A stretch of 64,000 bases of DNA from a bacterium (GTDB taxonomy: Bacteria > Hydrothermota > DG-26 > JAUXAN01): NCBI GenBank assembly GCA_030619885.1, contig JAUXAN010000004.1, positions 12,575 through 76,574 of the forward strand, given 5' to 3'. The translations under genes were made by a program, and so were the position numbers. Positions 7,449 to 52,786 of the stretch are shown piece by piece; the first letter of the stretch is position 1, and each line of letters begins with the position of its first letter. Below the pieces are notes generated by a model, which ran no database searches, had not been told where the DNA came from, and worked only from the letters and a program-made list of their open reading frames with translations.

Positions 7449-7456
7449 ATTATGAC

Positions 7457-7771
7457 CTACAGAAGTTCCTCAGGGTCTATTAGTGCCTCTGTTCCATGCC
7501 TTATATCGGCAGGTTCGAGTTTAAACTTTCCCTGTTCCCATGATAAAATATGGCGGACAGTAGACTTTAACTTTTCTATAGTACTCTCATTTTGGCTCTC
7601 CGGAAGTGATCCCGATGGAACAGTGACAGATACTATCATCCCTCTTTTAAAAGTCACGCTCCCATGACCCATAGGGCTATCTATCGTTAATATCCCTGAA
7701 CGCTCGATTCTCTTGAGAAACTTTAAGAGGTCAAAATTTTTCATATCACGAAGATCTCCAACTAATGGCAT
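7457..7771 (-). CDS. DUF4388-like small protein
   Basis: GDLRDM...LK...RSGILTI...G.VTFKRGMIV...ILSWEQGKFKLEP pattern; GGAGG RBS. Confidence 0.65.
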   Translation of the reverse strand: MPLVGDLRDMKNFDLLKFLKRIERSGILTIDSPMGHGSVTFKRGMIVSVTVPSGSLPESQNESTIEKLKSTVRHILSWEQGKFKLEPADIRHGTEALIDPEELL

Positions 7772-7959
7772 AGGTATCCTCCAATACTACTTACGATTAT
7801 ACCTGGTGCTTTTTTCACCTTATCAACTATCGAAGAGAGACGGAATGGTTTCTCGAAGTATGCCAACGAACTCTTCTTAAAAAGCCCTTTTTATCAAGCA
7901 TTTTTCACCCTTTTTGGACAGCCCATACTTCTTTGTCCATTTTTATATGAAAATTTTTT

Positions 7960-9957: not shown

Positions 9958-9959
9958 CT

Positions 9960-27196: not shown

Positions 27197-28123
27197 TTAG
27201 ATTAGGAAAAAATCTCTTATCAGGTCTTTCCATTCCTTTTCATCAATTTTTCGGAGTGTGCGTATAAGAGTGACATAACAACCTACTGAAACCCCGAGAT
27301 CACTCTCAATTCTGTGTGATAATCTATTTACTTCCTCCATAAGCCAATCCTTGGCTTTGTTTCCTTTCAAAAGCCCCTCCAAATCAACTTCAATATTAAA
27401 TGACTTTAATTCAAGGACCCACCCTTTCCCATAAGGGTCGGCATTTAATAAAGAACTGTCCTTGGAAAGCTCCTTGTTCATCTTCTTCACTGTACCATCG
27501 ATTGGAGAAAGTAGTTGAGCATTTCCCATCTTGCTCCTGACTTCCCAGCCAATTTCTCCTCGCTTCACTTCTTCTTTATGAACAAACTCTATCCCTTTTA
27601 TCTTCCCTAACAACCGTTGAGCAAAGTCATCCAATCCTATCCTCACAGTGTCTTCGTTTATTCTTCTAACCCAAGTGTGTTTCTTGTAAAAGTAGAGAGA
27701 ACCCGAAATTAAGAAACCATTCACTTTTATCCGGTTTACTTTTGTCATTTGAGCCAAAACTTTTGGATGCCCATAAATAGCATCTTGCATCATTTGGTCA
27801 TACTCACAGGAACCGCATTGATAGTTATTGGGGCAGAGTTTATAAGATACCTCTCCAACCAACATATATCTACACTTTCGTTCCAAAGCTGGCAGATTTC
27901 TCAACCGAGTAATAATATTAAACATCTCTGGTGTTTCCGCATATTTACCATTCACATCCATCAGAGATTGATTAAATTGGCACTTGGCACAATTGTAATT
28001 GAGAGTGCAAAGGCGATAAGAGATCACACCCAGCTTTACCCATATACATAGGCGTTCTTTACCAGGAAGCTCTTTCATTGTCTCCTTCATTGCTTTTATA
28101 TCTTCCTCTTTTGCAACAGTCAT
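27197..28123 (-). CDS. GcvH-like protein with two N-terminal Cys-rich repeats; lipoyl-Lys position not conserved
   Basis: 2x C-x12-C-x5-C-x2-C, then HTWV...VRIGLDDFAQRLLG...LSPIDG...NADPYGKGW. Confidence 0.8.
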   Translation of the reverse strand: MTVAKEEDIKAMKETMKELPGKERLCIWVKLGVISYRLCTLNYNCAKCQFNQSLMDVNGKYAETPEMFNIITRLRNLPALERKCRYMLVGEVSYKLCPNNYQCGSCEYDQMMQDAIYGHPKVLAQMTKVNRIKVNGFLISGSLYFYKKHTWVRRINEDTVRIGLDDFAQRLLGKIKGIEFVHKEEVKRGEIGWEVRSKMGNAQLLSPIDGTVKKMNKELSKDSSLLNADPYGKGWVLELKSFNIEVDLEGLLKGNKAKDWLMEEVNRLSHRIESDLGVSVGCYVTLIRTLRKIDEKEWKDLIRDFFLI

Positions 28124-28256: not shown

Positions 28257-29200
28257 TCACTTTTTCCCCTGTCCAAATTCAAAGGTATCGATCGCATTTT
28301 TGACCACTGAAGCAGAGCGATCGAATGCTTCTTTCTCCTGTAAGGTAAGTTCGAGTTCGATGACTTTTTCTATTCCTTTGACTCCCAATTGTACTGGAAC
28401 ACCGAGACAGATATCTTTGTGTCCATACTCACTGTTTATATATGCAGGGCAGCATATAATCCTGTGGTCATTTCTGACTATAGCCTCAACCATCTCTGCG
28501 ACAGAGGCTGCAGGGGCACAGGATGCACTTCCGGTTTTCAAGTCCGCAACGATTTCTGCGCCTGCATTTCTCGTCCTCTCTATCAATTTATCTATCTTTT
28601 CTTTTGGGAGAAGTTCTGTTATAGGGATACCCTCTACCCTTGCATATCTCGGCAGAATGACCATATAGTCATGATGCCCTCCGAGAACAATTGCCGTAGT
28701 ATTGGCTGTAGAAACATTCAACTCCTCGGCGATGAATTCGCGTAGACGTGTAGAATCGAGGACACCAGCTACTCCCATAACTTTCGGGTTTGAAACCACT
28801 TGTCTTCAGCGTATAATAAGTAAGTGAATCAACAGGTTCGGTAAGAATTATGATAATCGAATTGGGTGCATTAGTGACTATTTCTTTGACGATTGAGCCT
28901 ATCACTTTAACATTTAGTTCGAGCAGGTCAAGGCGCAACATCCCTGGTCTTCTCATCTTTCCTGCCGCTATGGCCACAATTTTAGAACCTTTCGTATCTT
29001 TGTAATCATTCGAACCCTCAATAACTATCTATGTCATAACCCCTTATAGGTGCTGCTTCCATAAGGTCCAATGCCTTCCCCCTCGCTTTCCCCTTCACAT
29101 TATCAATCAACATCACATTGGCGAGTTTCTTCTCTGCTATATAGAAGGCTGTATCTGTTCCAACATTCCCTGCCCCTATTAAACTTACTTTCTCCATCAT
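28257..29200 (-). pseudogene. mdh: Malate dehydrogenase (LDH-like MDH) broken by two frameshifts
   Basis: three track ORFs join up: IGAGNVG; AGKMRRPGMLRLDLL; GVLDSTR, GGHHD, LKTGSA; ATAG duplication near 29025 and ~2-nt deletion near 28785. Confidence 0.85.
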
Positions 29201-29262: not shown

Positions 29263-32200
29263 TTACGATACTAAGCATGCTTTGACCATTTCAGAGATTT
29301 GTTTTGATTTAAATCCGAGTTGTTGCATTGCTCCTGATGGACAGGCACCCACACAACTCCCACAACCTTTACATAATGCTTTGTTGACCTGTGAAACTCT
29401 TTTCCTATCTTTTATAACAATCTCTAAAGCACCATAAGCACATACACTCTCACATACTCCACAACCTGAACAAATGTCTTCATTTACACTCGCAACAATG
29501 GCTTCTGCCTCGTACTTATCTTTTGAGATAATGGTACAAGCCCTTGAAGCTGCAGCGCAGGCTTGTGAAATTGTTTCATCGATAGTCTTTGGTGAGTGTG
29601 CCATTCCTGCTACGAATATTCCTTCTGTGGCAAAATCCACAGGCCGCAGCTTCACATGTGCTTCAAGGAAGAAGTTGTCGCTCCCTAAAGGCACTTTAAG
29701 TAATTTGGCAATCTCTTCATTACCGTGCTCTGGATGGATGCCTGCACTCAGGACGAGGAGATCCGCATCAATAATTAGCTGCTCCTTGAGAATTGGGTCA
29801 AGAAGGGATACTTTAATTGAACCATCTTGGACTATAAGCTCAGGTTTTTGATTCTCATCATAGCGGATGAAAGTAACCCCTCTGTCACGTGCTTCCCGAT
29901 AATAAATTTCACGCGTTCCGTAAGTCCTGATATCACGATATAAGATAAATATGTTAACTTGAGGATTGAGTTCAAGCAACTTGAGTGAATTTTTTATTGC
30001 CTGAGTGCAACATACCCTACTACAATAAGGATGTTCATTATCCCGTGAACCCACACACTGAATCATCACCACAGATTGGTAATTGTTGATTGGTGATTGG
30101 TGATTAGAAAGGAGTTCTTCCAGTTCGTGTTGTGTTATTACCTGGGTGTGCTTGTCATATAAATATTCATTGGGCTTGTATTCACGGGCTCCTGTAGCTA
30201 CAATTACAATACCGTGCTCTAATTCGTTATTCGTTATTCGTGATTCGTGATTCGTAGTGATACTGGTTTTGTAGTTTCCAATGTAGCCCTCGATGTTCTC
30301 AATACTTGTTCCTTTGTAAACTTTGATTCGTGGATGATTTTCTACCGCATCAATTAATGAGTCCAGGTATTTTTGAACATTCTCACCTTTGATTGTATAG
30401 TGCAGATTTCTCAGGTTTCCGCCAAGTTCAGATTCTTTCTCAACAAGAAACACTTCAAATCCTTGATTGGCAATGGATAAAGCAGAAACCACCCCAGCAA
30501 GTCCACCACCAATAATTAATCCCTTTTGTATCACATCAAGTTCTATTGTAGGCAGCGGTTCTAATAGTTTTACCTTGGCAACTGCCATTCTTACTAAATC
30601 TTTTGCCTTTCTGGTAGCTTCTTCTGGTTCATTCATATGAACCCAGGAGCATTGGTCTCTAATGTTTGCCATCTCAAAGAGATGTGGATTTAGACCTGCT
30701 TCCCTTATCGTTTCCTGGAACAGAGGCTCGTGGGTTCTTGGTGTACAGGAGGCAACAATTACTCGGTTAAGGTTATGCTCTTTTATTTTCTCCACAATTT
30801 TTCTCTGTGTATCTTGTGAGCAGGTAAACAGGTTTTCCTCTGCATATACGACATTGGGCAGAGTTTTTGCATACTCGACTACCAATGGCACATCTACATA
30901 AGCACCTATGTTAATACCACATCTACAGATAAAGACACCAATTCTTGGTGGTTTTCCTGTAACATCAATCTCCTCTGGGTATTCCTTCCTGGTTATCAAA
31001 GTATTTCTTGCAACTGCAAGTAGCGAAGCAACCTCGGATGCTGCACCTGATGCCTGAGTTACTGTCTCGGGTATGTCCTTGGGTCCCTGAAATACACCTG
31101 AGACAAATATACCCGGTCTTGAAGTCTGCGTGGGATGAAATTCATCAGTTTCACAGAAACCGTATTCATTCAGGTCAATACCTATTCTTTTACTCAACTC
31201 CATTGCTTCTTCTGATGGGACAAGTCCTACAGAAAGAACTACAAGATGAAATTCTTCTTGCTTAAGTTCTCCTTCTTCGGTTTCATACTTTAGATAAAGG
31301 TTATGGGTTTCTGGGTCTTCTTCTATAGATGAGATTCTTGCCCGTATATATCTCACTCCATATTCACTTTTTGATCTTTCATAGTATTTATCGAAATCTT
31401 TGCCATAAGCTCTCATATCCATAAAGAATATTGTGGGATCAACTTCTGGTGAGTGCTCTTTTGTAATTATTGCCTCTTTTGTAGCATACATACAACATAC
31501 TGATGAGCAATACGGCTTGCCTTTTCTATTTTCTCTTGAGCCAACACATTGGATCCAGGCGATCCTTTTCGGTGGCTTCTTATCCGAAGGTCTCAGTGTA
31601 TGTCCTTCATATGGACCTGCTGCTGATAGAATGCGCTCAAATTGCAAAGATGTGATAACATTTGAAAAGCGTTTGTATCCATATTCGCCTTTAATTTCAG
31701 GCGAGAATATTTGTGAGCCAAGCGATAGAAGAACTGCTCCTACTTCAATTTCCATGTCTTCTTCTACCATATCATGCAAGATTGCATCTGCTTCGCAATT
31801 CTTGACGCATTGGAGACATTCAGAACATACTCCACAATTAAGACATCTTTCTGCTTCTTTAATTGCTGTCTCTTTACTTTCATAGCCTAATTCAACCTTT
31901 TCCCAATCTTTGCGCCTTACATCGGGTGGCCGTTTTGGTAAATCAATCCTTTTCTCTTTCTTGACTTCCTTCTCTGGGAGTTCTGCTACCTTTACCTCTT
32001 TTTTTTCTCTATCAACCTTTATGTCTATTCCTTGGAGATACCTATCTATAGAGATAGCCGCCTCATGAGCCTGTCCTACTGCTTCAACTACTGAAGCAGG
32101 ACCCTTTACAATATCACCACCTGCAAAGACCCACGGAATATTTGTCTGAAGAGTAATTTCATCAACTTTGAATGTCTTCCATGAAGTGGTCTCCAGTTTT

Positions 32201-33711
32201 TCAAATCCAGTGAAATCTGGCTCCTGCCCTATAGCAATTATAATTGTATCTCCATTTAGGGTGGCATCTGTGCCTTCCTCAAGTTTTGGCCTAAATCTAC
32301 CTTGGGCATCAAACACAGAAGAGCACACCAATGTCTCGAGTCCTACAACCTTTCCGTCCTCACTAAAAATTCTCTTCGGGCCTCGACAAGGATGAAAAAT
32401 TACCCCTTCCTCATCTGCCTCTTCAATCTCCCAATTATGGGCAGGCATCCTATCTTTAGAAGATAAATCCCTTGTTTCAAGGCAGACAAGATGAACTTCT
32501 TTAGCACCCAATCTGAGGGAACTTTTTGCACAATCGATCGCTACATTACCACCTCCTATAACTATTACCTTCTCACCAATTCTTACTTCTTGCTTTGCCT
32601 TTACTGACTTCAGGAATGGAATCCCGTAGAGCACTCCATCGGCATCTGTGCCTTCAATAGGTAATCGTTTTGGATTCTGTGCCCCAATAGCAACAAAAAC
32701 TGCTTTGTATCCTTGATTTTTTATATCCTCCAGAGATAAGTTTCTTCCAATGGTAATGCCTGTTTTTAGTTCTATGCCGTGAGCAAGCATTCTCTCGATA
32801 TCATATTTTGCAATATCTTCAGGGATTCTATATTCTGGTAAGCATGATGTAATCATCCCTCCTGGTTTGCCCATTGATTCGAAGACAGTGACTGGGTAGC
32901 CTATTTTTAAAAGTTCAAGTGAACAGGCGAGTCCAGCAGGTCCAGCTCCGATGATTGCTATTTTCTCTTTCTTGTCAGGCTTTATTGGATTTACTGGCTC
33001 ATCTCCTTCGGTTCTTGCCCAATCACTCACAAACCTTTTTAATAGTCTGATTGCGATAGGTTCATCAATTTCTTTACGGTTACATTCTTCCTCACACGGG
33101 TGATGACATGCTCTTCCACAAACAGAGGGGAGCGGCATGTTTTCCCTTACGAGTTCTATAGCCTCTTTGAACTTTCCTTGTGAAATTAGTGCTACATAAC
33201 CTTGCGTATGGACTCTTGCTGGACAAGCATTTGTGCAAGGTGGCACCCCTGCTTTTTCTATAGCAAAGGCATTTGGCACAGCTTGTGGGTATAGCTTATA
33301 TATTGCCTTTCTCGTTGTAAGCTCTTGTTCGTATTCGTTCAACACCTCTACAGGACAAGACTCAACACATTCACCACAACCTGTACATTTGTTTATATCA
33401 ATATATCTGGGGTGTTTCTTTAACTTGGTTTTGAAATTACCTGCCTCTCCTGTTAGTTCTTCTACTTCTGCATTGGTTATGAGTTCAATGTTTGGATGTC
33501 TACCTGTGGCTACTAACTTTGGTGCAAGAATGCACATAGAACAGTCGTTGGTAGGAAAAGTTTTATCCAGTTGCGCCATTACACCACCAATGCTGGGATT
33601 CTTGTCCACAAGATAGACCTTGAAACCTGAGTCTGCCAAATCCAGAGATGCTTGAATGCCGCCTATCCCACCGCCGACGACTAATACGGCACCAACTTTT
33701 TTATTATCCAT
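29263..33711 (-). CDS. hdrA: Large HdrA-like flavoprotein (HdrL type: HdrA module + NfnB/GltD-like NAD(P)H module + second HdrA module)
   Basis: GGGIGGIQASLDLA, LDKTFPTNDCSMC, CGRACHHPCEEEC, IIGAGPAG, IQCVGSR, CSSVCC, LRPVDF, terminal ferredoxin motifs. Confidence 0.92.
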   Translation of the reverse strand: MDNKKVGAVLVVGGGIGGIQASLDLADSGFKVYLVDKNPSIGGVMAQLDKTFPTNDCSMCILAPKLVATGRHPNIELITNAEVEELTGEAGNFKTKLKKHPRYIDINKCTGCGECVESCPVEVLNEYEQELTTRKAIYKLYPQAVPNAFAIEKAGVPPCTNACPARVHTQGYVALISQGKFKEAIELVRENMPLPSVCGRACHHPCEEECNRKEIDEPIAIRLLKRFVSDWARTEGDEPVNPIKPDKKEKIAIIGAGPAGLACSLELLKIGYPVTVFESMGKPGGMITSCLPEYRIPEDIAKYDIERMLAHGIELKTGITIGRNLSLEDIKNQGYKAVFVAIGAQNPKRLPIEGTDADGVLYGIPFLKSVKAKQEVRIGEKVIVIGGGNVAIDCAKSSLRLGAKEVHLVCLETRDLSSKDRMPAHNWEIEEADEEGVIFHPCRGPKRIFSEDGKVVGLETLVCSSVFDAQGRFRPKLEEGTDATLNGDTIIIAIGQEPDFTGFEKLETTSWKTFKVDEITLQTNIPWVFAGGDIVKGPASVVEAVGQAHEAAISIDRYLQGIDIKVDREKKEVKVAELPEKEVKKEKRIDLPKRPPDVRRKDWEKVELGYESKETAIKEAERCLNCGVCSECLQCVKNCEADAILHDMVEEDMEIEVGAVLLSLGSQIFSPEIKGEYGYKRFSNVITSLQFERILSAAGPYEGHTLRPSDKKPPKRIAWIQCVGSRENRKGKPYCSSVCCMYATKEAIITKEHSPEVDPTIFFMDMRAYGKDFDKYYERSKSEYGVRYIRARISSIEEDPETHNLYLKYETEEGELKQEEFHLVVLSVGLVPSEEAMELSKRIGIDLNEYGFCETDEFHPTQTSRPGIFVSGVFQGPKDIPETVTQASGAASEVASLLAVARNTLITRKEYPEEIDVTGKPPRIGVFICRCGINIGAYVDVPLVVEYAKTLPNVVYAEENLFTCSQDTQRKIVEKIKEHNLNRVIVASCTPRTHEPLFQETIREAGLNPHLFEMANIRDQCSWVHMNEPEEATRKAKDLVRMAVAKVKLLEPLPTIELDVIQKGLIIGGGLAGVVSALSIANQGFEVFLVEKESELGGNLRNLHYTIKGENVQKYLDSLIDAVENHPRIKVYKGTSIENIEGYIGNYKTSITTNHESRITNNELEHGIVIVATGAREYKPNEYLYDKHTQVITQHELEELLSNHQSPINNYQSVVMIQCVGSRDNEHPYCSRVCCTQAIKNSLKLLELNPQVNIFILYRDIRTYGTREIYYREARDRGVTFIRYDENQKPELIVQDGSIKVSLLDPILKEQLIIDADLLVLSAGIHPEHGNEEIAKLLKVPLGSDNFFLEAHVKLRPVDFATEGIFVAGMAHSPKTIDETISQACAAASRACTIISKDKYEAEAIVASVNEDICSGCGVCESVCAYGALEIVIKDRKRVSQVNKALCKGCGSCVGACPSGAMQQLGFKSKQISEMVKACLVS

Positions 33712-33713
33712 GG

Positions 33714-34631
33714 CTAACTGCTAAACTTACACTGCTCATTTTGCATTGATTTCGTTTCTATCCTTTCAAGCAGGCTATCTGCTTTTACTTTGTTGAGATT
33801 AAATCCGAGTAGCTTTCGGTTGATTCCAAGTGCCAACCCCAGAAGCTGTGGATAATAAAGTACAGGTAAGTTGTAACTTGTTTGAAACTTTGTTCCAATT
33901 CGCTTTTGGTTTTCATCATACATTGCACCACAAAATGGACACATAAGGACAATTGCATCTGCGCCACTTACTTTCACACTATCCAACTTCTTTTGTGCTA
34001 TAGAGAGGGCGATATCTTCATTTATGGCTAACACACCAGCTCCACAACAATGTTCCTTTTCCAGATAATCAATAGACTTGGCAGCCGTTATTTCAATGAG
34101 TTCATCAAGTGAATGAGGGTTTTCAGAGTCATCATAATTGTCATATATATCTGATGGTTTAAGGTAATGGCATCCATAATGAGGTGCAACAGTGATACCA
34201 GATAGTTTCCTTTTTATCTTTGAACTTATCTTTTCGGATCCCAAATCTTCATGCAAAATCCTGATCAAGTGTTTTACTTTGATATTTTGGGCGAACCCAT
34301 ACTTGCCATCTTCCTTGCCCAATTTTGACAGTACTTTCTGTCTTGCCTTATCATTGCTTGCAAGATAGCGACTGACCTCTACTAAGGTCCCAGCACAGGC
34401 ACTGCAAAGCACACAGATATTAAGACCAGCATCTTCAGCAGCAATAAGGTTACGAGCTGCTATAAGAATGAAACTTTCATAATGCACGGATTTCACAGGA
34501 AAGCCACAACACTCAAACTCAGGTAAGTCAATAAGTTCGATTCCAATAGCTTCAGCTACCCTGCGGGTTGATAGCTCATAATTTCTTGCTTTAGTTGGTG
34601 CTGTACAGCCTAAGAATAGAGCATATTTCAT
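33714..34631 (-). CDS. hdrB: Heterodisulfide reductase subunit B-like (two CCG domains)
   Basis: FLGC, CCGFP, CSAC, HYGCHYLKP, CCGAG, CPFC. Confidence 0.9.
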   Translation of the reverse strand: MKYALFLGCTAPTKARNYELSTRRVAEAIGIELIDLPEFECCGFPVKSVHYESFILIAARNLIAAEDAGLNICVLCSACAGTLVEVSRYLASNDKARQKVLSKLGKEDGKYGFAQNIKVKHLIRILHEDLGSEKISSKIKRKLSGITVAPHYGCHYLKPSDIYDNYDDSENPHSLDELIEITAAKSIDYLEKEHCCGAGVLAINEDIALSIAQKKLDSVKVSGADAIVLMCPFCGAMYDENQKRIGTKFQTSYNLPVLYYPQLLGLALGINRKLLGFNLNKVKADSLLERIETKSMQNEQCKFSS

Positions 34632-34638
34632 ATTAAAT

Positions 34639-35961
34639 TTATTTCTTCAGAATATCCAGTAGTCCTGAAGTCTCAAATATTTTGGCCGCTGATCCTTCAC
34701 CGGTCCATAATTTAGGCAAACCAAGTTTTTCCCTTCTGCGATTATCAAACTCATCTATCTCATATAGCCTACCGTGTTTTGCTAATAAATCTACTTGAGC
34801 AGTAAAGACTGGGTGAGTGTAGCCCTCTTTGACAGCTATATTTTTAATGGCATTGACAATGTTAGTGAACTTCACATCCTGGGGACAGCGCTCAGTGCAA
34901 GCATAACAGGTTGAACATAGCCAGATGAAGTCACTCTTAAGAATCCTTTCCTTCATACCAAGCAATGCCATACGGATAATTTTTCTTGGATTGTATTTAC
35001 TGTCTATTTCCCTTACAGGACAGGTAGCAGTGCATATACCACAACCAAAGCAGACCTTAATATTTTCGCCACCGGGCTCTCTGGCTATCTCGTGCTTAAA
35101 ATTTGGATTAAGTGCACTTATTTGGACGTATCTGTCAGTTTTCCGTTCCACTATTTCGCGCCTGAGCCACCACCTTATCATTGCATCACCAGATAGTAGA
35201 TTGGCAAGTTCTTTGGCAAAGTCAGAGGTTCTAATTCTAGCAATCCAGCCTTTACCATACGGGTCACTATTCAACAAAGAACTATCTTTTTTTAGCAATT
35301 CATTAACCTCTGCGATCTGTCCATTTACAGGTGCCAATAACTTGTATACACGCCCTGCTGCGCCATAAATTTCAGCACAAGGATTACCTTGCTCAATTAT
35401 AGTGTCTTTTGATGGGATCTTTATATCAGTTATAACACCGATGGTTTTCTGAAAAACATCGTCTATTCCAATATCTACTGTATTTTCAGTCACCACTTTT
35501 ACCCAACTGTGTTCTGGCAGATAATAAAGGTCGGCTGGCATATTGTATTCAAAGGCGACACGATTTTTTGTAGCTCTCAATCTCTCTTCACGGAGAAGTC
35601 TGCGACGCTCAATTGCCCTATCCACAACGCTACGAAGCTCATCTGGGGTAAATGGTTTGGATATGTAATCAAAAGCACCGAGCTTCATTGCCTCAACTGC
35701 GGTCTGAACCGTGGCATAACCGGTAATCATTATTATATCTGTCTCAGGTTCTTTATCTTTCACAATTTTCAATAGTTGAATCCCACTCAAACCGGGTAGC
35801 TTGAGGTCAGTTACTATAGCATCGTATCTGCCTGCCTCTATCTTATCGAGAGCCTCTTCTGCATTCAGGGTTGTTTCCACTTCATAGCCAGTTTTTGTCA
35901 AAGTTGCTTCACACCCATCAAGCACAACAGGCTCATCGTCAACAACTAAAATACAAGACAT
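34639..35961 (-). CDS. hdrC: Fusion: response-regulator receiver + GcvH-like domain + HdrC (2x[4Fe-4S])
   Basis: VVDDE...DLKLPG...KPF; HSWV...IGIDD...NSDPYGKGW; CFGCGICTATCP...CSTCYACTERCP. Confidence 0.88.
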   Translation of the reverse strand: MSCILVVDDEPVVLDGCEATLTKTGYEVETTLNAEEALDKIEAGRYDAIVTDLKLPGLSGIQLLKIVKDKEPETDIIMITGYATVQTAVEAMKLGAFDYISKPFTPDELRSVVDRAIERRRLLREERLRATKNRVAFEYNMPADLYYLPEHSWVKVVTENTVDIGIDDVFQKTIGVITDIKIPSKDTIIEQGNPCAEIYGAAGRVYKLLAPVNGQIAEVNELLKKDSSLLNSDPYGKGWIARIRTSDFAKELANLLSGDAMIRWWLRREIVERKTDRYVQISALNPNFKHEIAREPGGENIKVCFGCGICTATCPVREIDSKYNPRKIIRMALLGMKERILKSDFIWLCSTCYACTERCPQDVKFTNIVNAIKNIAVKEGYTHPVFTAQVDLLAKHGRLYEIDEFDNRRREKLGLPKLWTGEGSAAKIFETSGLLDILKK

Positions 35962-35990: not shown

Positions 35991-36419
35991 CTATTTCTTC
36001 TTCTCCACCTCTTTTATCTTCTGTTTAAGCCATGGTTCAACTGCATCACCATGATATAACTTTTTAAGCTCTTCCTCTAATTTAGATAGTTTCACAATCA
36101 TTATCCAACCTTCTCCATAAGGGTCTTTGTTTATAAGTGTGCAGTTATCCTCGAGTTTCTCGTTTACTTCAACTATATTGCCTGATACAGGTGAGACAAA
36201 TTTTCCAACCCACTTGGCAGATTGAATCTTACCACAAGTCTCTCCTTGTACTATCTTATCTCCTTCAAATGGTAAATCAACATAAGTTGTATCTCCTGCT
36301 AACTTCTGATAGAAGTCAGTCATCCCAACCCTAACATTGTCACCCTCTACTTTTACCCATGTATCTTCTTCATGGTAGTAGAGTTCATCTGGCATGTTAT
36401 AATCTTCTATCACTGCCAT
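35991..36419 (-). CDS. gcvH: Glycine cleavage H-family lipoyl carrier (LbpA-like SAKWVG motif)
   Basis: EDTWV...VGMTDF...IQSAKWVGKFVSPVSG...NKDPYGEGW; Lys at the canonical lipoylation position. Confidence 0.88.
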   Translation of the reverse strand: MAVIEDYNMPDELYYHEEDTWVKVEGDNVRVGMTDFYQKLAGDTTYVDLPFEGDKIVQGETCGKIQSAKWVGKFVSPVSGNIVEVNEKLEDNCTLINKDPYGEGWIMIVKLSKLEEELKKLYHGDAVEPWLKQKIKEVEKKK

Positions 36420-36442: not shown

Positions 36443-37492
36443 CTATTTTGCTATCACAATTGCATTTGTGAAATCCTCAGGCTCTACTTTAGGGGTCTCT
36501 ATTTTGTGCTTATCGTAAAACTTTTCAATTTTTAGATTTATTAGACTATCTTTGCGTTTTGTATTTGCGAGGTTTTGCTCCATAGCCTCAAGTTCAGCCT
36601 TTGGATAGAACTGGAAATCGCCAGATATGATAATATCTTCAATTATCTCTTCTTCTACTTCCTGCGAAGTTCGTATAAGCCCTCCATGGGCTTTGTATAT
36701 ACTATACAAGATCTCAACACCTTCCTTTATCCTTACTCCTTTCGGGATTCTTGGTGTCTTTTTAAATAAAAACTCTTTAGATGTAAACCATCGCTCAAGT
36801 TCAAACATCTTATTTAAAGTCTCAGATGTTAAACTAATGAGATCTAACTTGCCAAGTATCTTTTCGTATTTTTCAACAAGAACCTTCACAATGGATTCGC
36901 TTTCTGGAACAGTACCAAGTTCGCGCTTCATAGTAGTCAAGTTTTCTTTCATTGACTTGTAAATCTTATCTCTGAATTTTTCATCAGGCACTTTAAGTAT
37001 TTTGCCCATAGTTTCATAATCAAAATCCATTAGTATTCCACCAACAAGTACCATTGAATCTTCAATATCGCCGCCTCCTTCTCCTGCAATTTTTTTGCCT
37101 TCTCTTGTCACTATGTCATTTGCAGGTCTGAAATATGTATCTATGCCAAACTCTTTGTAAGTATCGCAAGGTGGCTGAGAGAGAAATTCAAATATTTCCG
37201 TAACTTTTTTAGGGAATTTAGGATTTCTTTTTTTCCATATAACTTGATAGAAGATTTGGTTTTTATCAAGATATGTTGCACCACCACCTACTTCACGACG
37301 CATAATGGGGATGCCTGCCTTTTTACAGTAGTCCAAATCTATTTCCTTTTCTGCGTCCTGAAAATATCCTACCGATGCCAGTGGAATTTTTGGTGATACA
37401 ATCACAAGCCCTTCAAATCCAAGTCTTGCGAGTGCGTGGAACCCGAGCATTGATTGCTGACCGGGAAGTTTGCCAAGATTTAGAATCTGCAT
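36443..37492 (-). CDS. lplA: Lipoate-protein ligase family protein (catalytic + C-terminal accessory domain)
   Basis: RREVGGGATYLD, RPANDI...KKIAG, KAHGGLIR...ISGDFQFYP; start refined after GGGGGAG RBS. Confidence 0.85.
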   Translation of the reverse strand: MQILNLGKLPGQQSMLGFHALARLGFEGLVIVSPKIPLASVGYFQDAEKEIDLDYCKKAGIPIMRREVGGGATYLDKNQIFYQVIWKKRNPKFPKKVTEIFEFLSQPPCDTYKEFGIDTYFRPANDIVTREGKKIAGEGGGDIEDSMVLVGGILMDFDYETMGKILKVPDEKFRDKIYKSMKENLTTMKRELGTVPESESIVKVLVEKYEKILGKLDLISLTSETLNKMFELERWFTSKEFLFKKTPRIPKGVRIKEGVEILYSIYKAHGGLIRTSQEVEEEIIEDIIISGDFQFYPKAELEAMEQNLANTKRKDSLINLKIEKFYDKHKIETPKVEPEDFTNAIVIAK

Positions 37493-37503
37493 TTCTCCCC
37501 CTT

Positions 37504-38562
37504 TCACTTTATTGCCTTCCAGATAAGGTCACTTATATTTCTCACTGTAATACTTCCATTACCACTTTCCGAGGCTGATGCAGCAGCTTTTTTAAGCACC
37601 TGTTCACAGGTTGGACACGGAGTTACAAGCATAGAGACTCCGATATCTATCGCCTGATGGATTCTTGTTTTGCCTAACTCATCTGAGAGTTCAATATCTG
37701 ACATAAGAATTCCACCTCCACCACCACAACATTGAGATTCTTTCTTGTTTCTTTCCATTTCCACAATCTCAACACCAATCTTTTTTAGAATCTCGCGTGG
37801 CTCCTCAATTATATTCATAACACGGGAAAGGTCGCATGGGTCATGATAAGTAGCCTTTATACCAAGATTTGCCGTAGGGAGATGCTCCATGATGGTCTGT
37901 GTCATATGCGTAACCTTTTTACCATATCCTTCATGCAAGAAAGCGGCACAAGTGGGACAAAGAGCCATAATTTCTTTATAGGGGAAAATCTCAAGGAACT
38001 TCTCTTTCCATTGGGCAAGTTCTTTTCTAAACCCAAGTGCATACAGTGGGAATCCACAACATATTTCTTCCTTGATTAACGGCTTTACACCGAGTTTCTC
38101 AAGGATTCTTATGTAGAGTTTTGTCTGATTGGGTCTGGCAAGATACTGGCATCCTATAAATACAGGCATTTCACCTTCCTGAATAGGTACTTTCACTTCT
38201 TCGTCTCCAAAGATATTACCCGTTCTCTTAACATTTTCTACTATAGTCTTATGTGTATCATAGGCGAAACCAGATTTAACAAGGTCTGCTCTTGCAGCAG
38301 AGATGACTCCTGGGATATCAACGTTGGCTGAACATCGTTCAACACAATCCCTGCAATAGGTACACTGAAACATACTATCTGCAATACGCTGGGAAGGCTT
38401 AAGTTCACCCGTGAGTAATCCATAAGAAAGGACGAGTTTTCCTCTGGCAGTATCAGATTCCCAACCAAGTTGTTTAAAAACAGGACAGCCTTCAAAACAA
38501 TAAGCACATCTTATGCATATACTTAACTCAGTTTCCCATTCCTTTAAATATTTGGTTTCCAT
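37504..38562 (-). CDS. Fe-S oxidoreductase with 2x[4Fe-4S] and two CCG domains (GlpC/HdrD-like)
   Basis: CIRCAYCFEGCP, CTYCRDCVERC, CCGFP, YHDPCDLSR, CCGGGGG, CPTC. Confidence 0.85.
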   Translation of the reverse strand: METKYLKEWETELSICIRCAYCFEGCPVFKQLGWESDTARGKLVLSYGLLTGELKPSQRIADSMFQCTYCRDCVERCSANVDIPGVISAARADLVKSGFAYDTHKTIVENVKRTGNIFGDEEVKVPIQEGEMPVFIGCQYLARPNQTKLYIRILEKLGVKPLIKEEICCGFPLYALGFRKELAQWKEKFLEIFPYKEIMALCPTCAAFLHEGYGKKVTHMTQTIMEHLPTANLGIKATYHDPCDLSRVMNIIEEPREILKKIGVEIVEMERNKKESQCCGGGGGILMSDIELSDELGKTRIHQAIDIGVSMLVTPCPTCEQVLKKAAASASESGNGSITVRNISDLIWKAIK

Positions 38563-38611: not shown

Positions 38612-39400
38612 CTATATATACTGTTGTATCTTTTTTAACAGATGTTCAGGCTTTATAGGCTTAGTAATGAACTCATCCACTTTGTGCGTATCTGCCATAG
38701 TACGGGCAAAATTTTGCTTTCTAAATTGCTTGTCAAGTGCTGTTACCATAAGAATGGGTATATTGTATGTCTGAGCATCTGTTTTCAATTCACGAGATAC
38801 CGTAAAACCATCTTTGTCGGGAAGTATAGCATCCATCACAATAAGATCAGGAGACATTGCCTTTACCATTCTAATTCCGCCTTTTGCAGTATCTGTAGTT
38901 TGCACTTCATACCCGTTTGATTCCAATACCTGTCGCATTGAACGTACGAAATCCCAATCGCTATCAATAATAAGGACTTTCTTCTTCTTTGTCGGTTCAG
39001 AAACAGTGAATTTTCTGCGAGTAATCAATCCATAGACCCTGGCAAGCAACTCCTTGGGTTCAATAGGCTTCTCTGCATAGTCGTCTGCTTTGTGATGAAG
39101 AGCAATCTTCTGTGCATATTTATCCTTAGCAGTTTCAGCACTGACAGAAGTTAAGACAAGAATGGGTATATCGAAAAAGTTAGTTCTTTCCTTGAACTCA
39201 CTACAGAGTGAAAACCCATCCTGCCCAGGAAGCATTATATCCAGAATAATTAGGTCGGGTTTTTCCTTTTTAAAACTCTGTCTTGCTTCTCTGCTGTCAG
39301 ATGCTGTAACTACTTCATATCCCTTACTTTTCAATATCTTAGTTGTGGCTTTGCAGAAATCGGCATCATCGTCTACAAGTAAAATCTTTGCTCTTTCCAT
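38612..39400 (-). CDS. Tandem receiver (REC-REC) protein with no output domain
   Basis: LLVDDD...ILDIMLPG...EKP and LIIDSD...VMDAILPD...TKP. Confidence 0.88.
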   Translation of the reverse strand: MERAKILLVDDDADFCKATTKILKSKGYEVVTASDSREARQSFKKEKPDLIILDIMLPGQDGFSLCSEFKERTNFFDIPILVLTSVSAETAKDKYAQKIALHHKADDYAEKPIEPKELLARVYGLITRRKFTVSEPTKKKKVLIIDSDWDFVRSMRQVLESNGYEVQTTDTAKGGIRMVKAMSPDLIVMDAILPDKDGFTVSRELKTDAQTYNIPILMVTALDKQFRKQNFARTMADTHKVDEFITKPIKPEHLLKKIQQYI

Positions 39401-39474: not shown

Positions 39475-40602
39475 TTAATCCGTGTAATCTGTGGCTTCAT
39501 TTCTAAACACCTCTTTGGGTAGAAGCACTGTAAAGGTGCTTCCTTTTTCAGTTTCACTTGTCACTCTGATAGTGCCAGAGTGTGCATCTACTATCTTCTT
39601 TACAATTGATAAGCCCAGACCTGTACCATCAATTCCTTGTGTTTTCTTATTCTTGATTTGATAAAATTGCTCAAAGATGAAAGGCAACTCCTCTTTTGGA
39701 ATCCCTATCCCTGTATCAGAAATATCCACCGCTACATACCCATCTTCTGCTTTTGCCTTTACTGTGATACTCCCTCCGTTTTTATTATACCTTATCCCAT
39801 TGTCCAGCAGGTTTAAGAACGCCTGTTCCAGAGTTTCCTTATTACCAAGAATCATTGGTAAATTCTCAGGGATATCCGTTTTCAAGGTAATATTTTTTTG
39901 TTTCGCCAATGTCTGCATCAAATCTGAAGTCTTAGTGATAATCTCGGTTAAACTTATCGGCTTTAATTTATTTACAATCTTGTCAGCATCTATTTTAGAT
40001 AGGTCGAGCCAATCCTTGATTAATCTCAAAAGTTCATCAATGCGAGTTTTTGACCGCTCCAGCATTTTCCTTTGTTCTTCCGTAACTTCTCCCGCCAACC
40101 CTTCCAGAATTACCTCGAAATATTCCTGGACAGCAACAAGTGGCGTTCTAAGTTGATGCGACACCATACTGATGAAATTTTCTCTCATCTTATCCTTCTC
40201 TTGTCGCAGACGATTGGATTCGATAATCAATCTCCTTCTCTCGAGGGCTCTTTTTGTGATTAGTCTGAGTTCATCAGGTGTAAATGGTTTGGGTAAAAAA
40301 TCGTATGCACCATTTTTCATTGATTCCACTGCTGAGTCTATCGTCCCATAACCTGTTATCACCACAGAAATAATATTTGGATCAATCGTTTTAATCTCTT
40401 CAAGAACTTCCATACCACTCATCCCTGGCATTTTGAGGTCAACAAGTACAAGGTCTGGATTTAGTTCTTTTACCTTTTGCAAGCCAGTGGCCCCATCTCT
40501 CGCAATATCTACTCTATAACCGTCTTTAGCATATACCTTACAACATGAGTCACACATAAATTCTTCATCATCAATTACCAGTATAGTAACAAGTTTTGCC
40601 AT
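39475..40602 (-). CDS. Receiver-histidine kinase (REC-HisKA-HATPase)
   Basis: VIDDE...DLKMPG; SHQLRTPL, NLLDNGIRYN, DTGIGIP, GTGLGLSIVK; ATG at 40602 preferred. Confidence 0.92.
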   Translation of the reverse strand: MAKLVTILVIDDEEFMCDSCCKVYAKDGYRVDIARDGATGLQKVKELNPDLVLVDLKMPGMSGMEVLEEIKTIDPNIISVVITGYGTIDSAVESMKNGAYDFLPKPFTPDELRLITKRALERRRLIIESNRLRQEKDKMRENFISMVSHQLRTPLVAVQEYFEVILEGLAGEVTEEQRKMLERSKTRIDELLRLIKDWLDLSKIDADKIVNKLKPISLTEIITKTSDLMQTLAKQKNITLKTDIPENLPMILGNKETLEQAFLNLLDNGIRYNKNGGSITVKAKAEDGYVAVDISDTGIGIPKEELPFIFEQFYQIKNKKTQGIDGTGLGLSIVKKIVDAHSGTIRVTSETEKGSTFTVLLPKEVFRNEATDYTD

Positions 40603-40738
40603 TTTTACACCTTTACTCAAATCCTTCAATTAGACACAGATTAACACAGATATTCGTTGATTTTAAACCTCTATTGAATTTAAGAAATGTTCTATTTTTC
40701 ATAATCTGTGGCATCTGGGTAACTCGATGTTTTTATTT

Positions 40739-41981: not shown

Positions 41982-42350
41982 CTACATATCTGTTGTATTA
42001 AGCATTTGATTGTCAATGTAACACACGAAGTTATTCTGCTTTAGTTCTTCCACCAATTTTCTGGTCTTCTCTTTTGAGTACCATGAGAGTCTGACTGGGA
42101 GATTCTTCAAATCCTTGCCAAGTTCCCTCTCAATTTCCCATACTGTCGGCTCTTTACCATCAAGAAGAAGTGCAGAATAACAGTTGGTTGTCTCTCTGAT
42201 TTTGAAAATTATAACTTTTGTGTCATCTTTTATCTCCATTTTTTCCTTATTAGCTTTTATTTCAGCGAAGATACGTAAAGAAGGGGGCAGGTCCTGTATC
42301 TCTGAAAAGGCAGCTAAATCTGCCGTATATGTATGTGAAAAGTTCTCCAT
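41982..42350 (-). CDS. Hypothetical protein, paralogue of 47328-47693, directly after mvhD
   Basis: 122 aa, AGAGGTG RBS; shares TADL.AF.E.QDLPPSL...DDTK...FKIR with its paralogue. Confidence 0.8.
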   Translation of the reverse strand: MENFSHTYTADLAAFSEIQDLPPSLRIFAEIKANKEKMEIKDDTKVIIFKIRETTNCYSALLLDGKEPTVWEIERELGKDLKNLPVRLSWYSKEKTRKLVEELKQNNFVCYIDNQMLNTTDM

Positions 42351-47327: not shown

Positions 47328-47693
47328 TTAATGTCTATATGGATACTTTTCGTTGTTGACTTTATGGTTCAGGAAATATGCAAATTCTCCCCGGCGAAAT
47401 TTCTCAAGAAGTTCTTTTAAAGTTTTTCTTGTTTCGTTTGAAAGTCTAATAGGTCCTAAATCTTTCTGGATTTTGTTTTCGACTTGCTCTATGTTCATAG
47501 CGTGATTAATAATAATTGCATGGCAGGAGTCTACTGTTCCCCTGATTTTGAAAACTATAAACCGTGTGTCTATTTCTACCTTAGTATCATCTTTCCAGCT
47601 TGCTGACTTGACAAATGAATATAAAGAGGGGGGTAAATCCTGTTTCTCTACGAAAGCAACAAGGTCAGCAGTAAATATATAATTATTGTCCAT
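47328..47693 (-). CDS. Hypothetical protein, paralogue of 41982-42350, directly after mvhD
   Basis: 121 aa; FTADLVAFVEKQDLPPSL...KDDTK...FKIRGT. Confidence 0.8.
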   Translation of the reverse strand: MDNNYIFTADLVAFVEKQDLPPSLYSFVKSASWKDDTKVEIDTRFIVFKIRGTVDSCHAIIINHAMNIEQVENKIQKDLGPIRLSNETRKTLKELLEKFRRGEFAYFLNHKVNNEKYPYRH

Positions 47694-51265: not shown

Positions 51266-51281
51266 AGCAGAATCTATGCCA
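51266..51281 (-). promoter_or_regulatory. Sigma54 (-24/-12) promoter for the hdr/lipoate gene run
   Basis: minus strand TGGCATAGATTCTGCT with exact GG-N10-GC spacing, next to a sigma54 activator gene. Confidence 0.75.
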
Positions 51282-51397: not shown

Positions 51398-52786
51398 TTA
51401 TGGAGAGTTTTTCGCCAGGTGTGGGGAATTATTCCCCAGTTCTATTCCGTATTTTTTCATCTTTGTACGAAGGGTTTTACGGTCAATTTTGAGTAATCTT
51501 GCTGCCTTACTTTTATTCCAATTGCACTTCTTCAGAGTTCTAATTATATGCTCTCTTTCTGCCGATGTTAGAGTGAAGTCTACCTCGTACATAGAAGCAC
51601 TCTCCCTATCTACAGGTGAGTAGCAAGGAAAATCAACGGGTTCAACAACATTTCCCTTTGCCAGCACCACTGCACGCTCTATTGCATTTTGCAATTCTCT
51701 CACATTACCTGGCCAGTCATATTCAATCAGTCCTTGCATCGCCTTTTCAGAGATAGCTTTTATTCTTTTGTTCCTCTTCCGATTATATTTGTCCAGAAAG
51801 TAGTTTGCTAATATGGGTATATCATCTCTCCGCTCTCGGAGTGGAGGGAGGTGAATGGGTATCACGCTCAATCGGTAAAATAGGTCTTCACGAAATGTCC
51901 CGTCACTTGTACCTTTTACGAGATCCTTATTCGTAGCGGAGATAATCCTGACATCCACCTTAATCGTCTTTGTGCTCCCAACTTTTGTTATCTCCCGTTC
52001 CTGTATTGCACGCAGTAGTTTGCCCTGAATGTTTATTCCGATATTTGCTATTTCATCAAAGAATATGGTCCCACTGTTGGCAAGTTCAAACTTCCCGTGT
52101 CTGGTAGTAATTGCGCCTGTGAAAGAACCCTTAACATGCCCGAACAGTTCACTCTCAAAAAGATTTTCTACAAGACTGCCGCAGTCTACAGTGACGAAAG
52201 GTTTGTCTTTTCGATCACTATAGCGATGAATCGCCCTCGCTACAAGTTCTTTTCCTGTGCCACTTTCACCTGAAATTAGAATAGTACTGTCTGTAGGACC
52301 TACCCTTCTTATCAACTCCTTTATCTTTATCATTGGTTCACTTTCACTAATTATCTCGTCCATCCCTAAATATTTATTTAACTGTTCACGAAGGTAGATG
52401 TTTTCCATTGTCAATTTTCTTCTCTCTTTTGCCCGCTGGATAATTGCACGCAGCTCATCCGGAGTAAAAGGCTTTGGAACAAAGTCGTATGCTCCTAACT
52501 TCATTGCCTCAACAGCCGACTCAACAGTTGCATATCCAGTGATGACAATCACAATAGTTTCGGGGGTGTCACTTTTTATCTTCTTCAAGACCTCCATACC
52601 GCTTATGTCGGGCATTTTCAAATCCAGAAGCACTATATCAAAATTTCCATCTTTTACAAGTTCAAGTCCCTTATACCCATCTTCGGCAACCGCTACATTA
52701 TATCTACTTCGAGAAAGTATCTGGTGGCAAGAATCACGCATAGCCTCTTCGTCATCAATGACCAATATGTTTAAATTTTCGACCAT
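51398..52786 (-). CDS. Sigma54-dependent NtrC-type response regulator (REC-AAA+-HTH)
   Basis: DLKMPD, GESGTGKELVA, ESELFGHVKGSFTGA, FFDEIA, WPGNVRELQN, C-terminal HTH. Confidence 0.96.
   Translation of the reverse strand: MVENLNILVIDDEEAMRDSCHQILSRSRYNVAVAEDGYKGLELVKDGNFDIVLLDLKMPDISGMEVLKKIKSDTPETIVIVITGYATVESAVEAMKLGAYDFVPKPFTPDELRAIIQRAKERRKLTMENIYLREQLNKYLGMDEIISESEPMIKIKELIRRVGPTDSTILISGESGTGKELVARAIHRYSDRKDKPFVTVDCGSLVENLFESELFGHVKGSFTGAITTRHGKFELANSGTIFFDEIANIGINIQGKLLRAIQEREITKVGSTKTIKVDVRIISATNKDLVKGTSDGTFREDLFYRLSVIPIHLPPLRERRDDIPILANYFLDKYNRKRNKRIKAISEKAMQGLIEYDWPGNVRELQNAIERAVVLAKGNVVEPVDFPCYSPVDRESASMYEVDFTLTSAEREHIIRTLKKCNWNKSKAARLLKIDRKTLRTKMKKYGIELGNNSPHLAKNSP
51401..51438. 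promoter_or_regulatory. Tandem 17-bp dyad sites; candidate upstream activator sequences
   Basis: tggagagtttttcgcca and tggggaattattcccca, 21 bp apart, 120-160 bp upstream of the sigma54 site. Confidence 0.55.

Follow-up and report, generated by a model that had tools for sequence, protein, structure and literature searches.

Receiver, GcvH-like and HdrC domains are joined in a single open reading frame

Heterodisulfide reductase (Hdr)-type electron-bifurcating enzymes are central to the energy conservation of anaerobes. We analyzed a 64,000-nucleotide stretch of the genome of a bacterium of the Hydrothermota (assembly GCA_030619885.1, contig JAUXAN010000004.1, positions 12,575 to 76,574 of the forward strand; referred to here as the window) around a minus-strand gene at 34639-35961 that joins a response regulator receiver domain (REC), a lysine-less H-protein-like domain (GcvHx) and an HdrC domain. 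The gene is a single frame encoding 440 amino acids plus the stop codon, has no internal stops and lies directly upstream of hdrB. An earlier note, made by a model from the sequence alone, had called this triple fusion, and all of the motifs it quoted were found in the uninterrupted frame. Pfam matches were Response_reg at residues 4-113 (E 3e-32), GCV_H at residues 145-259 (E 2e-24) and a 4Fe-4S dicluster domain at residues 302-363. On the best reading the gene is predicted to encode the HdrC subunit, with two [4Fe-4S] clusters, of a soluble HdrL-HdrB-HdrC complex, with the REC-GcvHx module at its N terminus.

The receiver, together with a long alpha-5/linker helix, occupies residues 1-129 (35575-35961). 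It scored 111 bits against PF00072, for which the cut-off is 30.2 bits, and the acidic pocket (D8, D9 and E10), the phospho-acceptor (D52 in TDLKLPG, at 35806-35808), the switch residues and the lysine (K102 in KPF) are all present. The best matches were the receivers of NtrC1 (PDB 1zy2/1ny5), DctD and NtrX, with an alignment that spans the alpha-5/linker helix to residue 139, and the AlphaFold model places a helix at residues 106-129. GcvHx spans residues 139-271 (35149-35547) and scored 86 bits against PF01597. Its hairpin, EIYGAAGRVYKLLAP, corresponds to residues 197-211 and has a glycine in the lipoyl-lysine column (G203, at 35353-35355), as claimed in the note. Foldseek comparison of the AlphaFold-modelled domain with solved GcvH structures gave template-modelling scores normalized to the target (TMt) of 0.85-0.92 and a root-mean-square deviation of 1.4-1.8 Å. 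The score against the lipoyl-carrier model TIGR00527 was 82 bits, under its 115.85-bit cut-off. The H domain of the fusion has the H-protein fold and lacks the lysine of a lipoyl carrier.

The HdrC domain occupies residues 280-440 (34642-35124) and follows GcvHx after a linker of only about 10 residues. It contains the two expected CxxCxxCxxxCP motifs, C304-P315 (35017-35052) and C349-P360 (34882-34917), and residues 280-418 align to residues 12-148 of methanogen HdrC (8rvu_c/8rvv_C). The NCBIfam HdrC model TIGR03290 matched residues 301-418 (E 9e-34, 117 bits). The equivalog cut-offs for the HdrC of the coenzyme B-coenzyme M (CoB-CoM) enzyme are 160 bits for TIGR03290 and 350 bits for NF041779, and the fusion fell below both (117 and 64 bits), so that its C-terminal part is classed as HdrC-like and, by the NCBI criterion, not as a subunit of the CoB-CoM enzyme. 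The genome has a single other HdrB-type gene, which is found on a different contig together with a small HdrC gene of its own, and the fusion is therefore the cognate HdrC of the adjacent HdrB. That second HdrC/HdrB pair is on contig C61; a further small HdrC-like gene was seen on C29, and two more HdrD-like genes on C14 and C61.

The fusion architecture is conserved but rare

A search of 5.8 billion protein clusters recovered about 45 clusters with the three-domain architecture of the fusion (436-459 amino acids, 46-100% identity), derived from NCBI, ENA, JGI and Logan assemblies. Of the 1.84 billion representatives in a 50%-identity library, only one matched over its whole length. The named carriers are candidate division WOR-3, a Deltaproteobacteria metagenome-assembled genome (MAG) with a closed 3.4-Mb chromosome and a Cloacimonas-labelled MAG, in addition to a contig of a Planctomycetota MAG. 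In an alignment of 45 members D8, D9, D52, T80, Y99 and K102 of the receiver were invariant, as were all eight cluster cysteines and both motif prolines of the HdrC domain. Conservation extended to the stretch between the H domain and HdrC, where W264, W265, E269 and Y278 are among the invariant residues. The fusion is a real, conserved but rare architecture rather than a misassembly. In a tree of HdrC domains, 40 of about 50 fusions grouped with standalone HdrCs of WOR-3 and Stahlbacteria that are encoded behind a REC-kinase and a REC-REC protein (support of 92 in the Shimodaira-Hasegawa-like approximate likelihood ratio test, SH-aLRT), and the remaining fusions were scattered over poorly supported branches. 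We found no HdrC with a receiver or a GcvH-like domain described in the literature searched.

GcvHx likely descends from Hdr-linked GcvH paralogues

The lipoyl-lysine column was compared across 44 fusions and held glycine in 26, arginine in 11, glutamate in four, lysine in two and aspartate in one. The two fusions with lysine (P0021 and P0023) sit inside a subgroup that otherwise carries arginine, indicating that this lysine is not conserved. The column was never lysine in 39 free-standing REC-GcvHx proteins and was lysine in all 24 short GcvH proteins of the same data set. K207, four residues past the hairpin tip and common in GcvHx, was considered as a carrier site and rejected, as it lies in a strand and not at the tip and is lysine or arginine in the lysine-bearing clade. 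GcvHx shares the fold-defining motifs of real H proteins. Its lipoyl hairpin, which has a one-residue insertion, varies more than any other part of the domain and is followed by a GcvHx-specific H-K-x-W motif.

The window also encodes a lysine-bearing GcvH of 142 amino acids (35991-36419, minus strand; PF01597, 130 bits), with the motif IQSAKWVGK, 29 nucleotides upstream of the fusion. The canonical gcvH of the genome (EAVKAVS) lies beside gcvPA on another contig (C37), which makes the neighboring gene a second, Hdr-linked paralogue. Each of the three fusion-bearing genomes of the phylum (G000, which is that of the window; G002; and G028) has both a canonical and an Hdr-type lysine-bearing GcvH. 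When 108 H domains were placed in a tree with canonical GcvH as the root, all GcvHx domains formed one group (SH-aLRT 89) nested in an Hdr-linked, lysine-bearing SxKW[VI]G clade (SH-aLRT 96), beside the subgroup that holds the window's own lysine-bearing GcvH, which is 42% identical to GcvHx domains. Together these data suggest that GcvHx descended from Hdr-linked lysine-bearing GcvH paralogues, a descent that we regard as likely, short of proven, because the domain is short and branch support is moderate.

A second GcvHx protein without the lysine (308 amino acids) is encoded at 27197-28123 on the minus strand, with GCV_H at residues 143-261 and methionine in the lipoyl column. Its N-terminal half consists of two cysteine-rich repeats where relatives carry a receiver, and its H domain forms a long branch inside the REC-GcvHx clade of the tree.

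The fusion lies in a long run of redox and signalling genes

The fusion gene is part of a long minus-strand run in which gene junctions are short or overlapping, and no credible minus-strand terminator was found between the genes of the run. Upstream, on the same strand, are genes for a sensor kinase with sCache_3, HAMP, HisKA and HATPase domains (52979-54952) and a sigma-54-dependent response regulator with REC, Sigma54_activat and HTH_8 domains (51398-52786). A sigma-54-type -24/-12 site, TGGCATAGATTCTGCT (51266-51281), is located after the regulator gene and before the redox run begins and is a good GG-N10-GC match. It is the only convincing minus-strand site of this type, and none was found directly upstream of the fusion. 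In transcription order the run continues with ferredoxin-like and HdrA-like genes, a second large HdrL paralogue and an FrhB-like gene. These are followed by a REC-HisKA-HATPase kinase (39475-40629; the REC-kinase, assigned from its Pfam domains) and a REC-REC protein with two Response_reg domains and no output domain (38612-39400), both of which the earlier note had placed in the same run. Then come an HdrD-like protein with a 4Fe-4S dicluster and two CCG domains (37504-38562), an LplA-type lipoate-protein ligase with LplA-B_cat and Lip_prot_lig_C domains (36443-37507), the lysine-bearing GcvH, the fusion, hdrB and hdrL.

The hdrB gene (33714-34631, minus strand, 305 amino acids, two CCG domains) begins 7 nucleotides downstream of the fusion. 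Its product aligns over the full length to M. wolfeii HdrB (5odc_B, 230 bits) and retains the full set of ten cysteines in its pair of CCG motifs. The hdrL gene (29263-33711, minus strand) encodes a 1482-amino-acid protein in which HdrA is fused with a GltD/NfnB-like NAD(P)H module: residues 151-657 match GltD, PRK12771, Fer4_20 and Pyr_redox_2, and the flanks match HdrA2 and HdrA. After hdrL, a malate/lactate dehydrogenase gene (mdh, 28257-29200, minus strand) is split across three frames (Ldh_1_N residues 2-52, Ldh_1_N residues 75-137 and Ldh_1_C), and is either a pseudogene or the product of indel errors in the assembly. Two DUF749 (PF05370) paralogues of about 120 amino acids are encoded on the minus strand at 41982-42350 and 47328-47693, one beside each set of Hdr genes.

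Layouts of related loci and the candidate kinase

The open reading frames (ORFs) of 86 loci, 80 of them genome loci, were classified with hidden Markov models built from the fusion family, and five recurring layouts were seen around the HdrC-HdrB-HdrL core. In layout A (WOR-3, Deltaproteobacteria, Cloacimonas-labelled and Planctomycetota MAGs) a Cache-HAMP kinase, a sigma-54 regulator and a free REC-GcvHx precede the REC-GcvHx-HdrC fusion and hdrB-hdrL. Layout B (WOR-3 and Stahlbacteria) has a REC-kinase, a REC-REC protein and a standalone HdrC ahead of hdrB-hdrL; the REC-REC gene precedes standalone hdrC in L018, L020, L022, L024, L025 and L027. Layout C, which has both regulator sets and the fusion followed by hdrB-hdrL, was found in the window and in an 87%-identical relative (L006). 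Layout D (Bacillota, Syntrophaceae and Acidobacteriota) has a lysine-bearing gcvH and then a separate hdrC before hdrB-hdrL, and layout E (Thermoplasmata and others) has HdrD-like and LplA genes, hdrC and then hdrB-hdrL. The HdrD-like/LplA pairing upstream of hdrC was seen in L019, L035, L040, L042 and L006. In the related fusion loci the fusion is always at the position of hdrC, ahead of hdrB and hdrL, and hdrL follows hdrB in nearly all related loci.

A lysine-bearing GcvH or an LplA lies at most 10 kb away in 24 of the 80 genome loci of the HdrC clade, spread over many phyla, which is far more than chance would give for one or two such genes per genome. In ten loci (L010-L015, L021, L023, L053 and L054, at about 9950-11000 of each) a lysine-bearing gcvH with the motif ESGKWVGR or IQSRKWIGK is immediately upstream of hdrC-hdrB-hdrL. 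These layout D loci come from MAGs of Bacillota, Syntrophaceae and Acidobacteriota, and in Thermoplasmata the HdrD-like and LplA genes occupy that place. Candidate GcvH-HdrC fusions without a receiver, suggested in the same three groups by tblastn hits that covered residues 139-438, were rejected when their frames proved to be two adjacent genes, a lysine-bearing gcvH (ESGKWVGR) and hdrC. The adjacent genes are kept as evidence of linkage between GcvH and HdrC.

The earlier note had proposed phosphotransfer to the fusion from the REC-kinase (39475-40602). This proposal fared poorly in the comparison of loci, as the REC-kinase is missing from most fusion loci and, among the loci classified, is confined to the window's own lineage and layout B. 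The Cache-HAMP kinase/sigma-54 regulator pair, in contrast, is upstream of the fusion in L001, L004, L005, L006 and L007, with a HAMP kinase in L003. Within the window the receiver of the fusion is closest to that of the sigma-54 regulator (49% identity), followed by the receiver of the REC-kinase (45%) and the two receivers of the REC-REC protein (39% and 27%), and the REC-kinase receiver is itself 61% identical to that of the sigma-54 regulator. Because the Cache-HAMP kinase is the one that recurs beside the fusion, it is the better candidate and more likely to be the cognate kinase than the REC-kinase, possibly acting via the latter.

Free-standing REC-GcvHx and other fusions of signalling domains with HdrC

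REC-GcvHx also occurs as a free-standing protein, with dozens of representatives at 50% identity. The lipoyl lysine is likewise absent from these, and in most fusion loci such a protein adjoins the fusion. Others stand before a multihaem cytochrome gene followed by hdrCBA-mvhD, or before a cytochrome/NrfD/Rieske cluster, and one has a WD40 protein as its neighbor and no redox genes nearby. In L101 (7001-12721, with two REC-GcvHx genes in tandem) and L102 (7001-11988), REC-GcvHx is directly upstream of a four-gene group-3-type [NiFe] hydrogenase operon that encodes a Fer4_22 subunit, an FAD/NAD subunit, the small subunit and the large subunit. REC-GcvHx heads hydrogenase and cytochrome operons that have neither Hdr nor a lipoyl carrier, suggesting that GcvHx makes protein contacts as a general output domain and is not specifically a rival of lipoyl-GcvH. 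As free-standing modules adjoin both the fusion and the operons of other redox enzymes, the fusion may serve as a Rosetta stone for the target of REC-GcvHx.

Other combinations of signalling domains with HdrC were also seen. P0129 (347 amino acids) has a receiver joined straight to HdrC with no H domain, and P0051 is a degenerate REC-PAS-HdrC fusion. About 16 clusters (P0052-P0057, P0063, P0065-P0069 and others) are PAS-HisKA-HATPase kinases of about 650 amino acids with a C-terminal HdrC. At L091 such a kinase-HdrC gene (6241-8190) is at the position of hdrC, ahead of hdrB, frhB-like and hdrA genes and mvhD. P0219 (1391 amino acids) combines three GCV_H domains with a GlcD-like FAD oxidase and an HdrD-like module made up of a 4Fe-4S and two CCG domains.

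Discussion

We propose, with moderate confidence, that REC-GcvHx in the fusion is a copy of the free-standing regulators permanently attached to the protein it regulates, and that it would place the HdrL-HdrBC complex under post-translational two-component control. The receiver is intact, the Hdr ligands are kept, the fusion replaces hdrC and GcvHx appears to derive from an Hdr-linked GcvH, and for these reasons direct control by phosphorylation, with the H domain docking, is the most economical explanation. The most economical reading of the locus as a whole is that two-component signalling would act on the enzyme as well as on transcription, the latter through the sigma-54 regulator. A histidine kinase, most likely the sCache-HAMP kinase that would also serve the sigma-54 regulator, would phosphorylate D52, with the REC-kinase as an alternative or a relay. 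The usual T80/Y99 switch would then alter the alpha4-beta5-alpha5 face of the receiver, and the altered face would change either the hold of the receiver on GcvHx or its dimerization. GcvHx would in turn bind to or let go of the Hdr complex at one of its surfaces, with an effect on electron flow, access of partners or assembly. Three links of this scheme are inferred, namely that D52 is phosphorylated, which kinase is responsible and how the enzyme responds, and so is the gating of the Hdr complex by phosphorylation that the earlier note had suggested.

Several observations weigh against this proposal. The fusion is rare, being present in 3 of 151 genomes sampled evenly across its phylum, and HdrC is standalone in a sister lineage within the same class, so the tether is dispensable for the enzyme in close relatives. 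The existence of kinase-HdrC fusions suggests that information may also run from the enzyme to the signalling system. Structure prediction gave a predicted template-modelling score (pTM) of 0.37 for the full-length protein, in which the individual domains are confident and confidence is low at residues 130-137 and 273-282, and the orientation of REC-GcvHx relative to HdrC is undefined in this model, from which HdrB, HdrL and the clusters are absent. A model of residues 1-272 reached a mean predicted local distance difference test (pLDDT) of 89.4 and a pTM of 0.85, which predicts that REC and GcvHx pack as one compact unit, but this model was built from a 42-sequence alignment and may overstate the rigidity of the unit. 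No solved single chain with both REC and H-protein domains was found, the maximum template-modelling score normalized to the query (TMq) being 0.47.

A possible but unlikely alternative is that the lysine-less H domain acts as a pseudo-substrate, filling the docking site for lipoyl-GcvH on HdrB/HdrC, with phosphorylation shifting it away or into place. This explanation assumes that the lipoyl group of the neighboring dedicated GcvH is the physiological disulfide partner of HdrB. The nesting of GcvHx in the Hdr-linked lysine-bearing clade and its 42% identity to the GcvH of the window are in its favor, as are the short linker to HdrC, the linkage of GcvH or LplA to 24 of 80 loci and the presence of both a canonical and an Hdr-type GcvH in G000, G002 and G028. 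There is also a published precedent in LbpA, a GcvH homologue that works with sHdr (PMC10332631). However, REC-GcvHx heads [NiFe] hydrogenase and cytochrome operons that lack Hdr and lipoyl carriers, and the lipoyl hairpin is the part of GcvHx that varies most and has gained a residue. Most fusion loci (L001, L003, L004, L005 and L007) have no lysine-bearing GcvH or ligase within 10 kb, and for any HdrB of this type lipoyl-GcvH is itself a hypothetical substrate. The earlier note had offered the H domain as a docking module or as a mimic competing with the real lipoyl carrier. The loss of the lysine and the probable origin from an Hdr carrier support the general idea, whereas specific competition with the lipoyl carrier is weakened, the hairpin being the least conserved part of the domain.

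It is rather improbable that the signal runs in the opposite direction, with the Hdr complex as the sensor and the receiver on HdrC as a phosphate sink or relay station. In that case the redox state of the clusters in HdrC/HdrB would set how fast the receiver is phosphorylated or dephosphorylated, and the REC-kinase/REC-REC/sigma-54 branch would thereby be informed of electron flux. Output-less receivers often serve as phosphate sinks, genes for a multi-receiver relay (REC-kinase, REC-REC and sigma-54 regulator) are present in the window, and kinases fused to HdrC do occupy the hdrC position in Hdr operons. Receivers as a rule take signals in, however, and GcvHx is conserved as a unit with its receiver, which is typical of an output domain. 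No evident redox-sensing ligand was found in REC or GcvHx except a partly conserved cysteine, Cys195.

That REC-GcvHx is purely structural, a scaffold for dimerization or assembly with no control by phosphorylation, is very unlikely. NtrC1/DctD-type receivers do dimerize via the alpha4-beta5-alpha5 face and the linker helix, and related lineages manage with a standalone HdrC, but the phospho-acceptor and switch residues are invariant down to 46% identity, which is unexpected for a pseudo-receiver, and kinase genes are always adjacent. Finally, an artefact of assembly or gene calling, in which sequencing errors join three separate genes, is effectively refuted: the MAG of the window does have broken genes, as shown by mdh, but full-length uninterrupted homologues occur in about 45 clusters of independent assemblies, including a closed chromosome, and the segments between the domains are conserved too, making a local mis-join untenable.

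If the fusion is indeed a tethered response regulator, a receiver within a subunit of a catalytic complex in several phyla would tie an environmental sensor, the Cache-domain kinase, directly to enzyme activity. To our knowledge, and in the literature searched, control of Hdr-type enzymes has been described for gene expression and none by phosphorylation. With the free-standing module found beside hydrogenases and cytochrome complexes, the fusion supplies a testable hypothesis about the target for a whole uncharacterized family of regulators. The apparent descent of GcvHx from Hdr-linked lipoyl carriers also lends circumstantial weight to the idea of protein-bound lipoate as the thiol/disulfide partner of bacterial and archaeal HdrBC outside methanogens. 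More speculatively, the REC-GcvHx proteins could be a widespread, undescribed group of response regulators whose output is direct contact with cytoplasmic redox enzymes (HdrL-HdrBC, group-3 [NiFe] hydrogenases and multihaem cytochrome complexes). The triple fusion would then mark the iron-sulfur subunit of HdrC type as the site of contact, and in Hdr GcvHx would be a pseudo-substrate, controlled by phosphorylation, of an enzyme that really acts on lipoyl-GcvH. We regard this wider proposal as doubtful. Were it true, two-component systems would gate flavin-based electron bifurcation post-translationally, and the long-sought disulfide of the non-methanogen Hdr enzymes could be named as the lipoyl carried by a dedicated paralogue of GcvH.

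Comparison with known systems

The window proteins share with methanogen HdrABC (PDB 5odc, 7bkb, 8rvu/8rvv and 9sfi) both CxxCxxCxxxCP motifs of HdrC and the noncubane-cluster cysteines of HdrB. Methanogen HdrC, however, is a standalone protein of 180-190 amino acids with no signalling domains, whereas the HdrC of the window is a 440-amino-acid fusion and its HdrA partner is the 1482-amino-acid HdrL with an NAD(P)H module. As the host is a bacterium, the heterodisulfide CoM-S-S-CoB is an unlikely substrate of the complex. The HdrL type, a fusion of HdrA with a glutamate-synthase-like part, was defined for Desulfobacterium autotrophicum (PMC2702500), and HdrABC complexes with an unknown substrate have been described for Syntrophobacter fumaroxidans (Sfum_0819-0824; PMC5947623). 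In these Desulfobacterota systems, as in the window, a large HdrA fusion is encoded with HdrB and HdrC; the reaction proposed for them is an NAD(P)H-linked bifurcation or confurcation that involves an unknown disulfide. Descriptions of their HdrC mention no receiver or GcvH-like domain, whereas the HdrC of the window has both. The hdrL gene of Desulfobacterota adjoins a gene for MvhD, unlike that of the window, and no match to PF02662 (FlpD/MvhD) was found among the ORFs scanned around either copy of hdrL in the window.

In the sHdr-LbpA system of Hyphomicrobium denitrificans and others, the Hdr-like enzyme needs a GcvH homologue, LbpA, and a dedicated ligase encoded nearby (PMC10332631). The window resembles this system in having a lysine-bearing GcvH paralogue and LplA directly upstream of the fusion. 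The sHdr operon (shdrC1B1AHC2B2) encodes two HdrC, two HdrB and a short HdrA, whereas that of the window encodes one HdrC, one HdrB and the 1482-amino-acid HdrL. A terminal cysteine pair is the hallmark of LbpA (bioRxiv 10.64898/2026.10.01.755906), and the GcvH at 35991-36419 lacks it and has only internal cysteines (ETCGK and DNCTL). Regulation of sHdr is transcriptional, through the ArsR-type sHdrR, with no receiver on a subunit, in contrast to the receiver-bearing HdrC of the window. The ORFs scanned in the window, the only part of the genome that this search covered, include no LipS1/LipS2, DsrE or TusA; DsrE and TusA genes follow hdrL in the relative L004. The system of the window is distinct from sHdr-LbpA.

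Receivers of the NtrC1/DctD type (PDB 1ny5, 1zy2, 4l4u, 1qkk and 1l5y) are the best match in sequence and fold to residues 4-139 of the fusion, including the linker helix used for dimer switching. Their output is an AAA+ sigma-54 activator, whereas the fusion has an H-protein fold as output and, after it, an iron-sulfur subunit of an enzyme. The glycine-cleavage H protein (PDB 3hgb, 1onl, 3a7a and 3ab9) matches the fold of the whole GcvHx domain (TMt about 0.9), from which it differs in the lipoyl lysine, replaced by G203 in GcvHx, and in the hairpin insertion and the H-K-x-W motif of GcvHx. The receiver-GcvHx-HdrC architecture as such is undescribed in the literature searched, but its parts appear to be of known kinds and the regulatory mechanism that they suggest is plausible.

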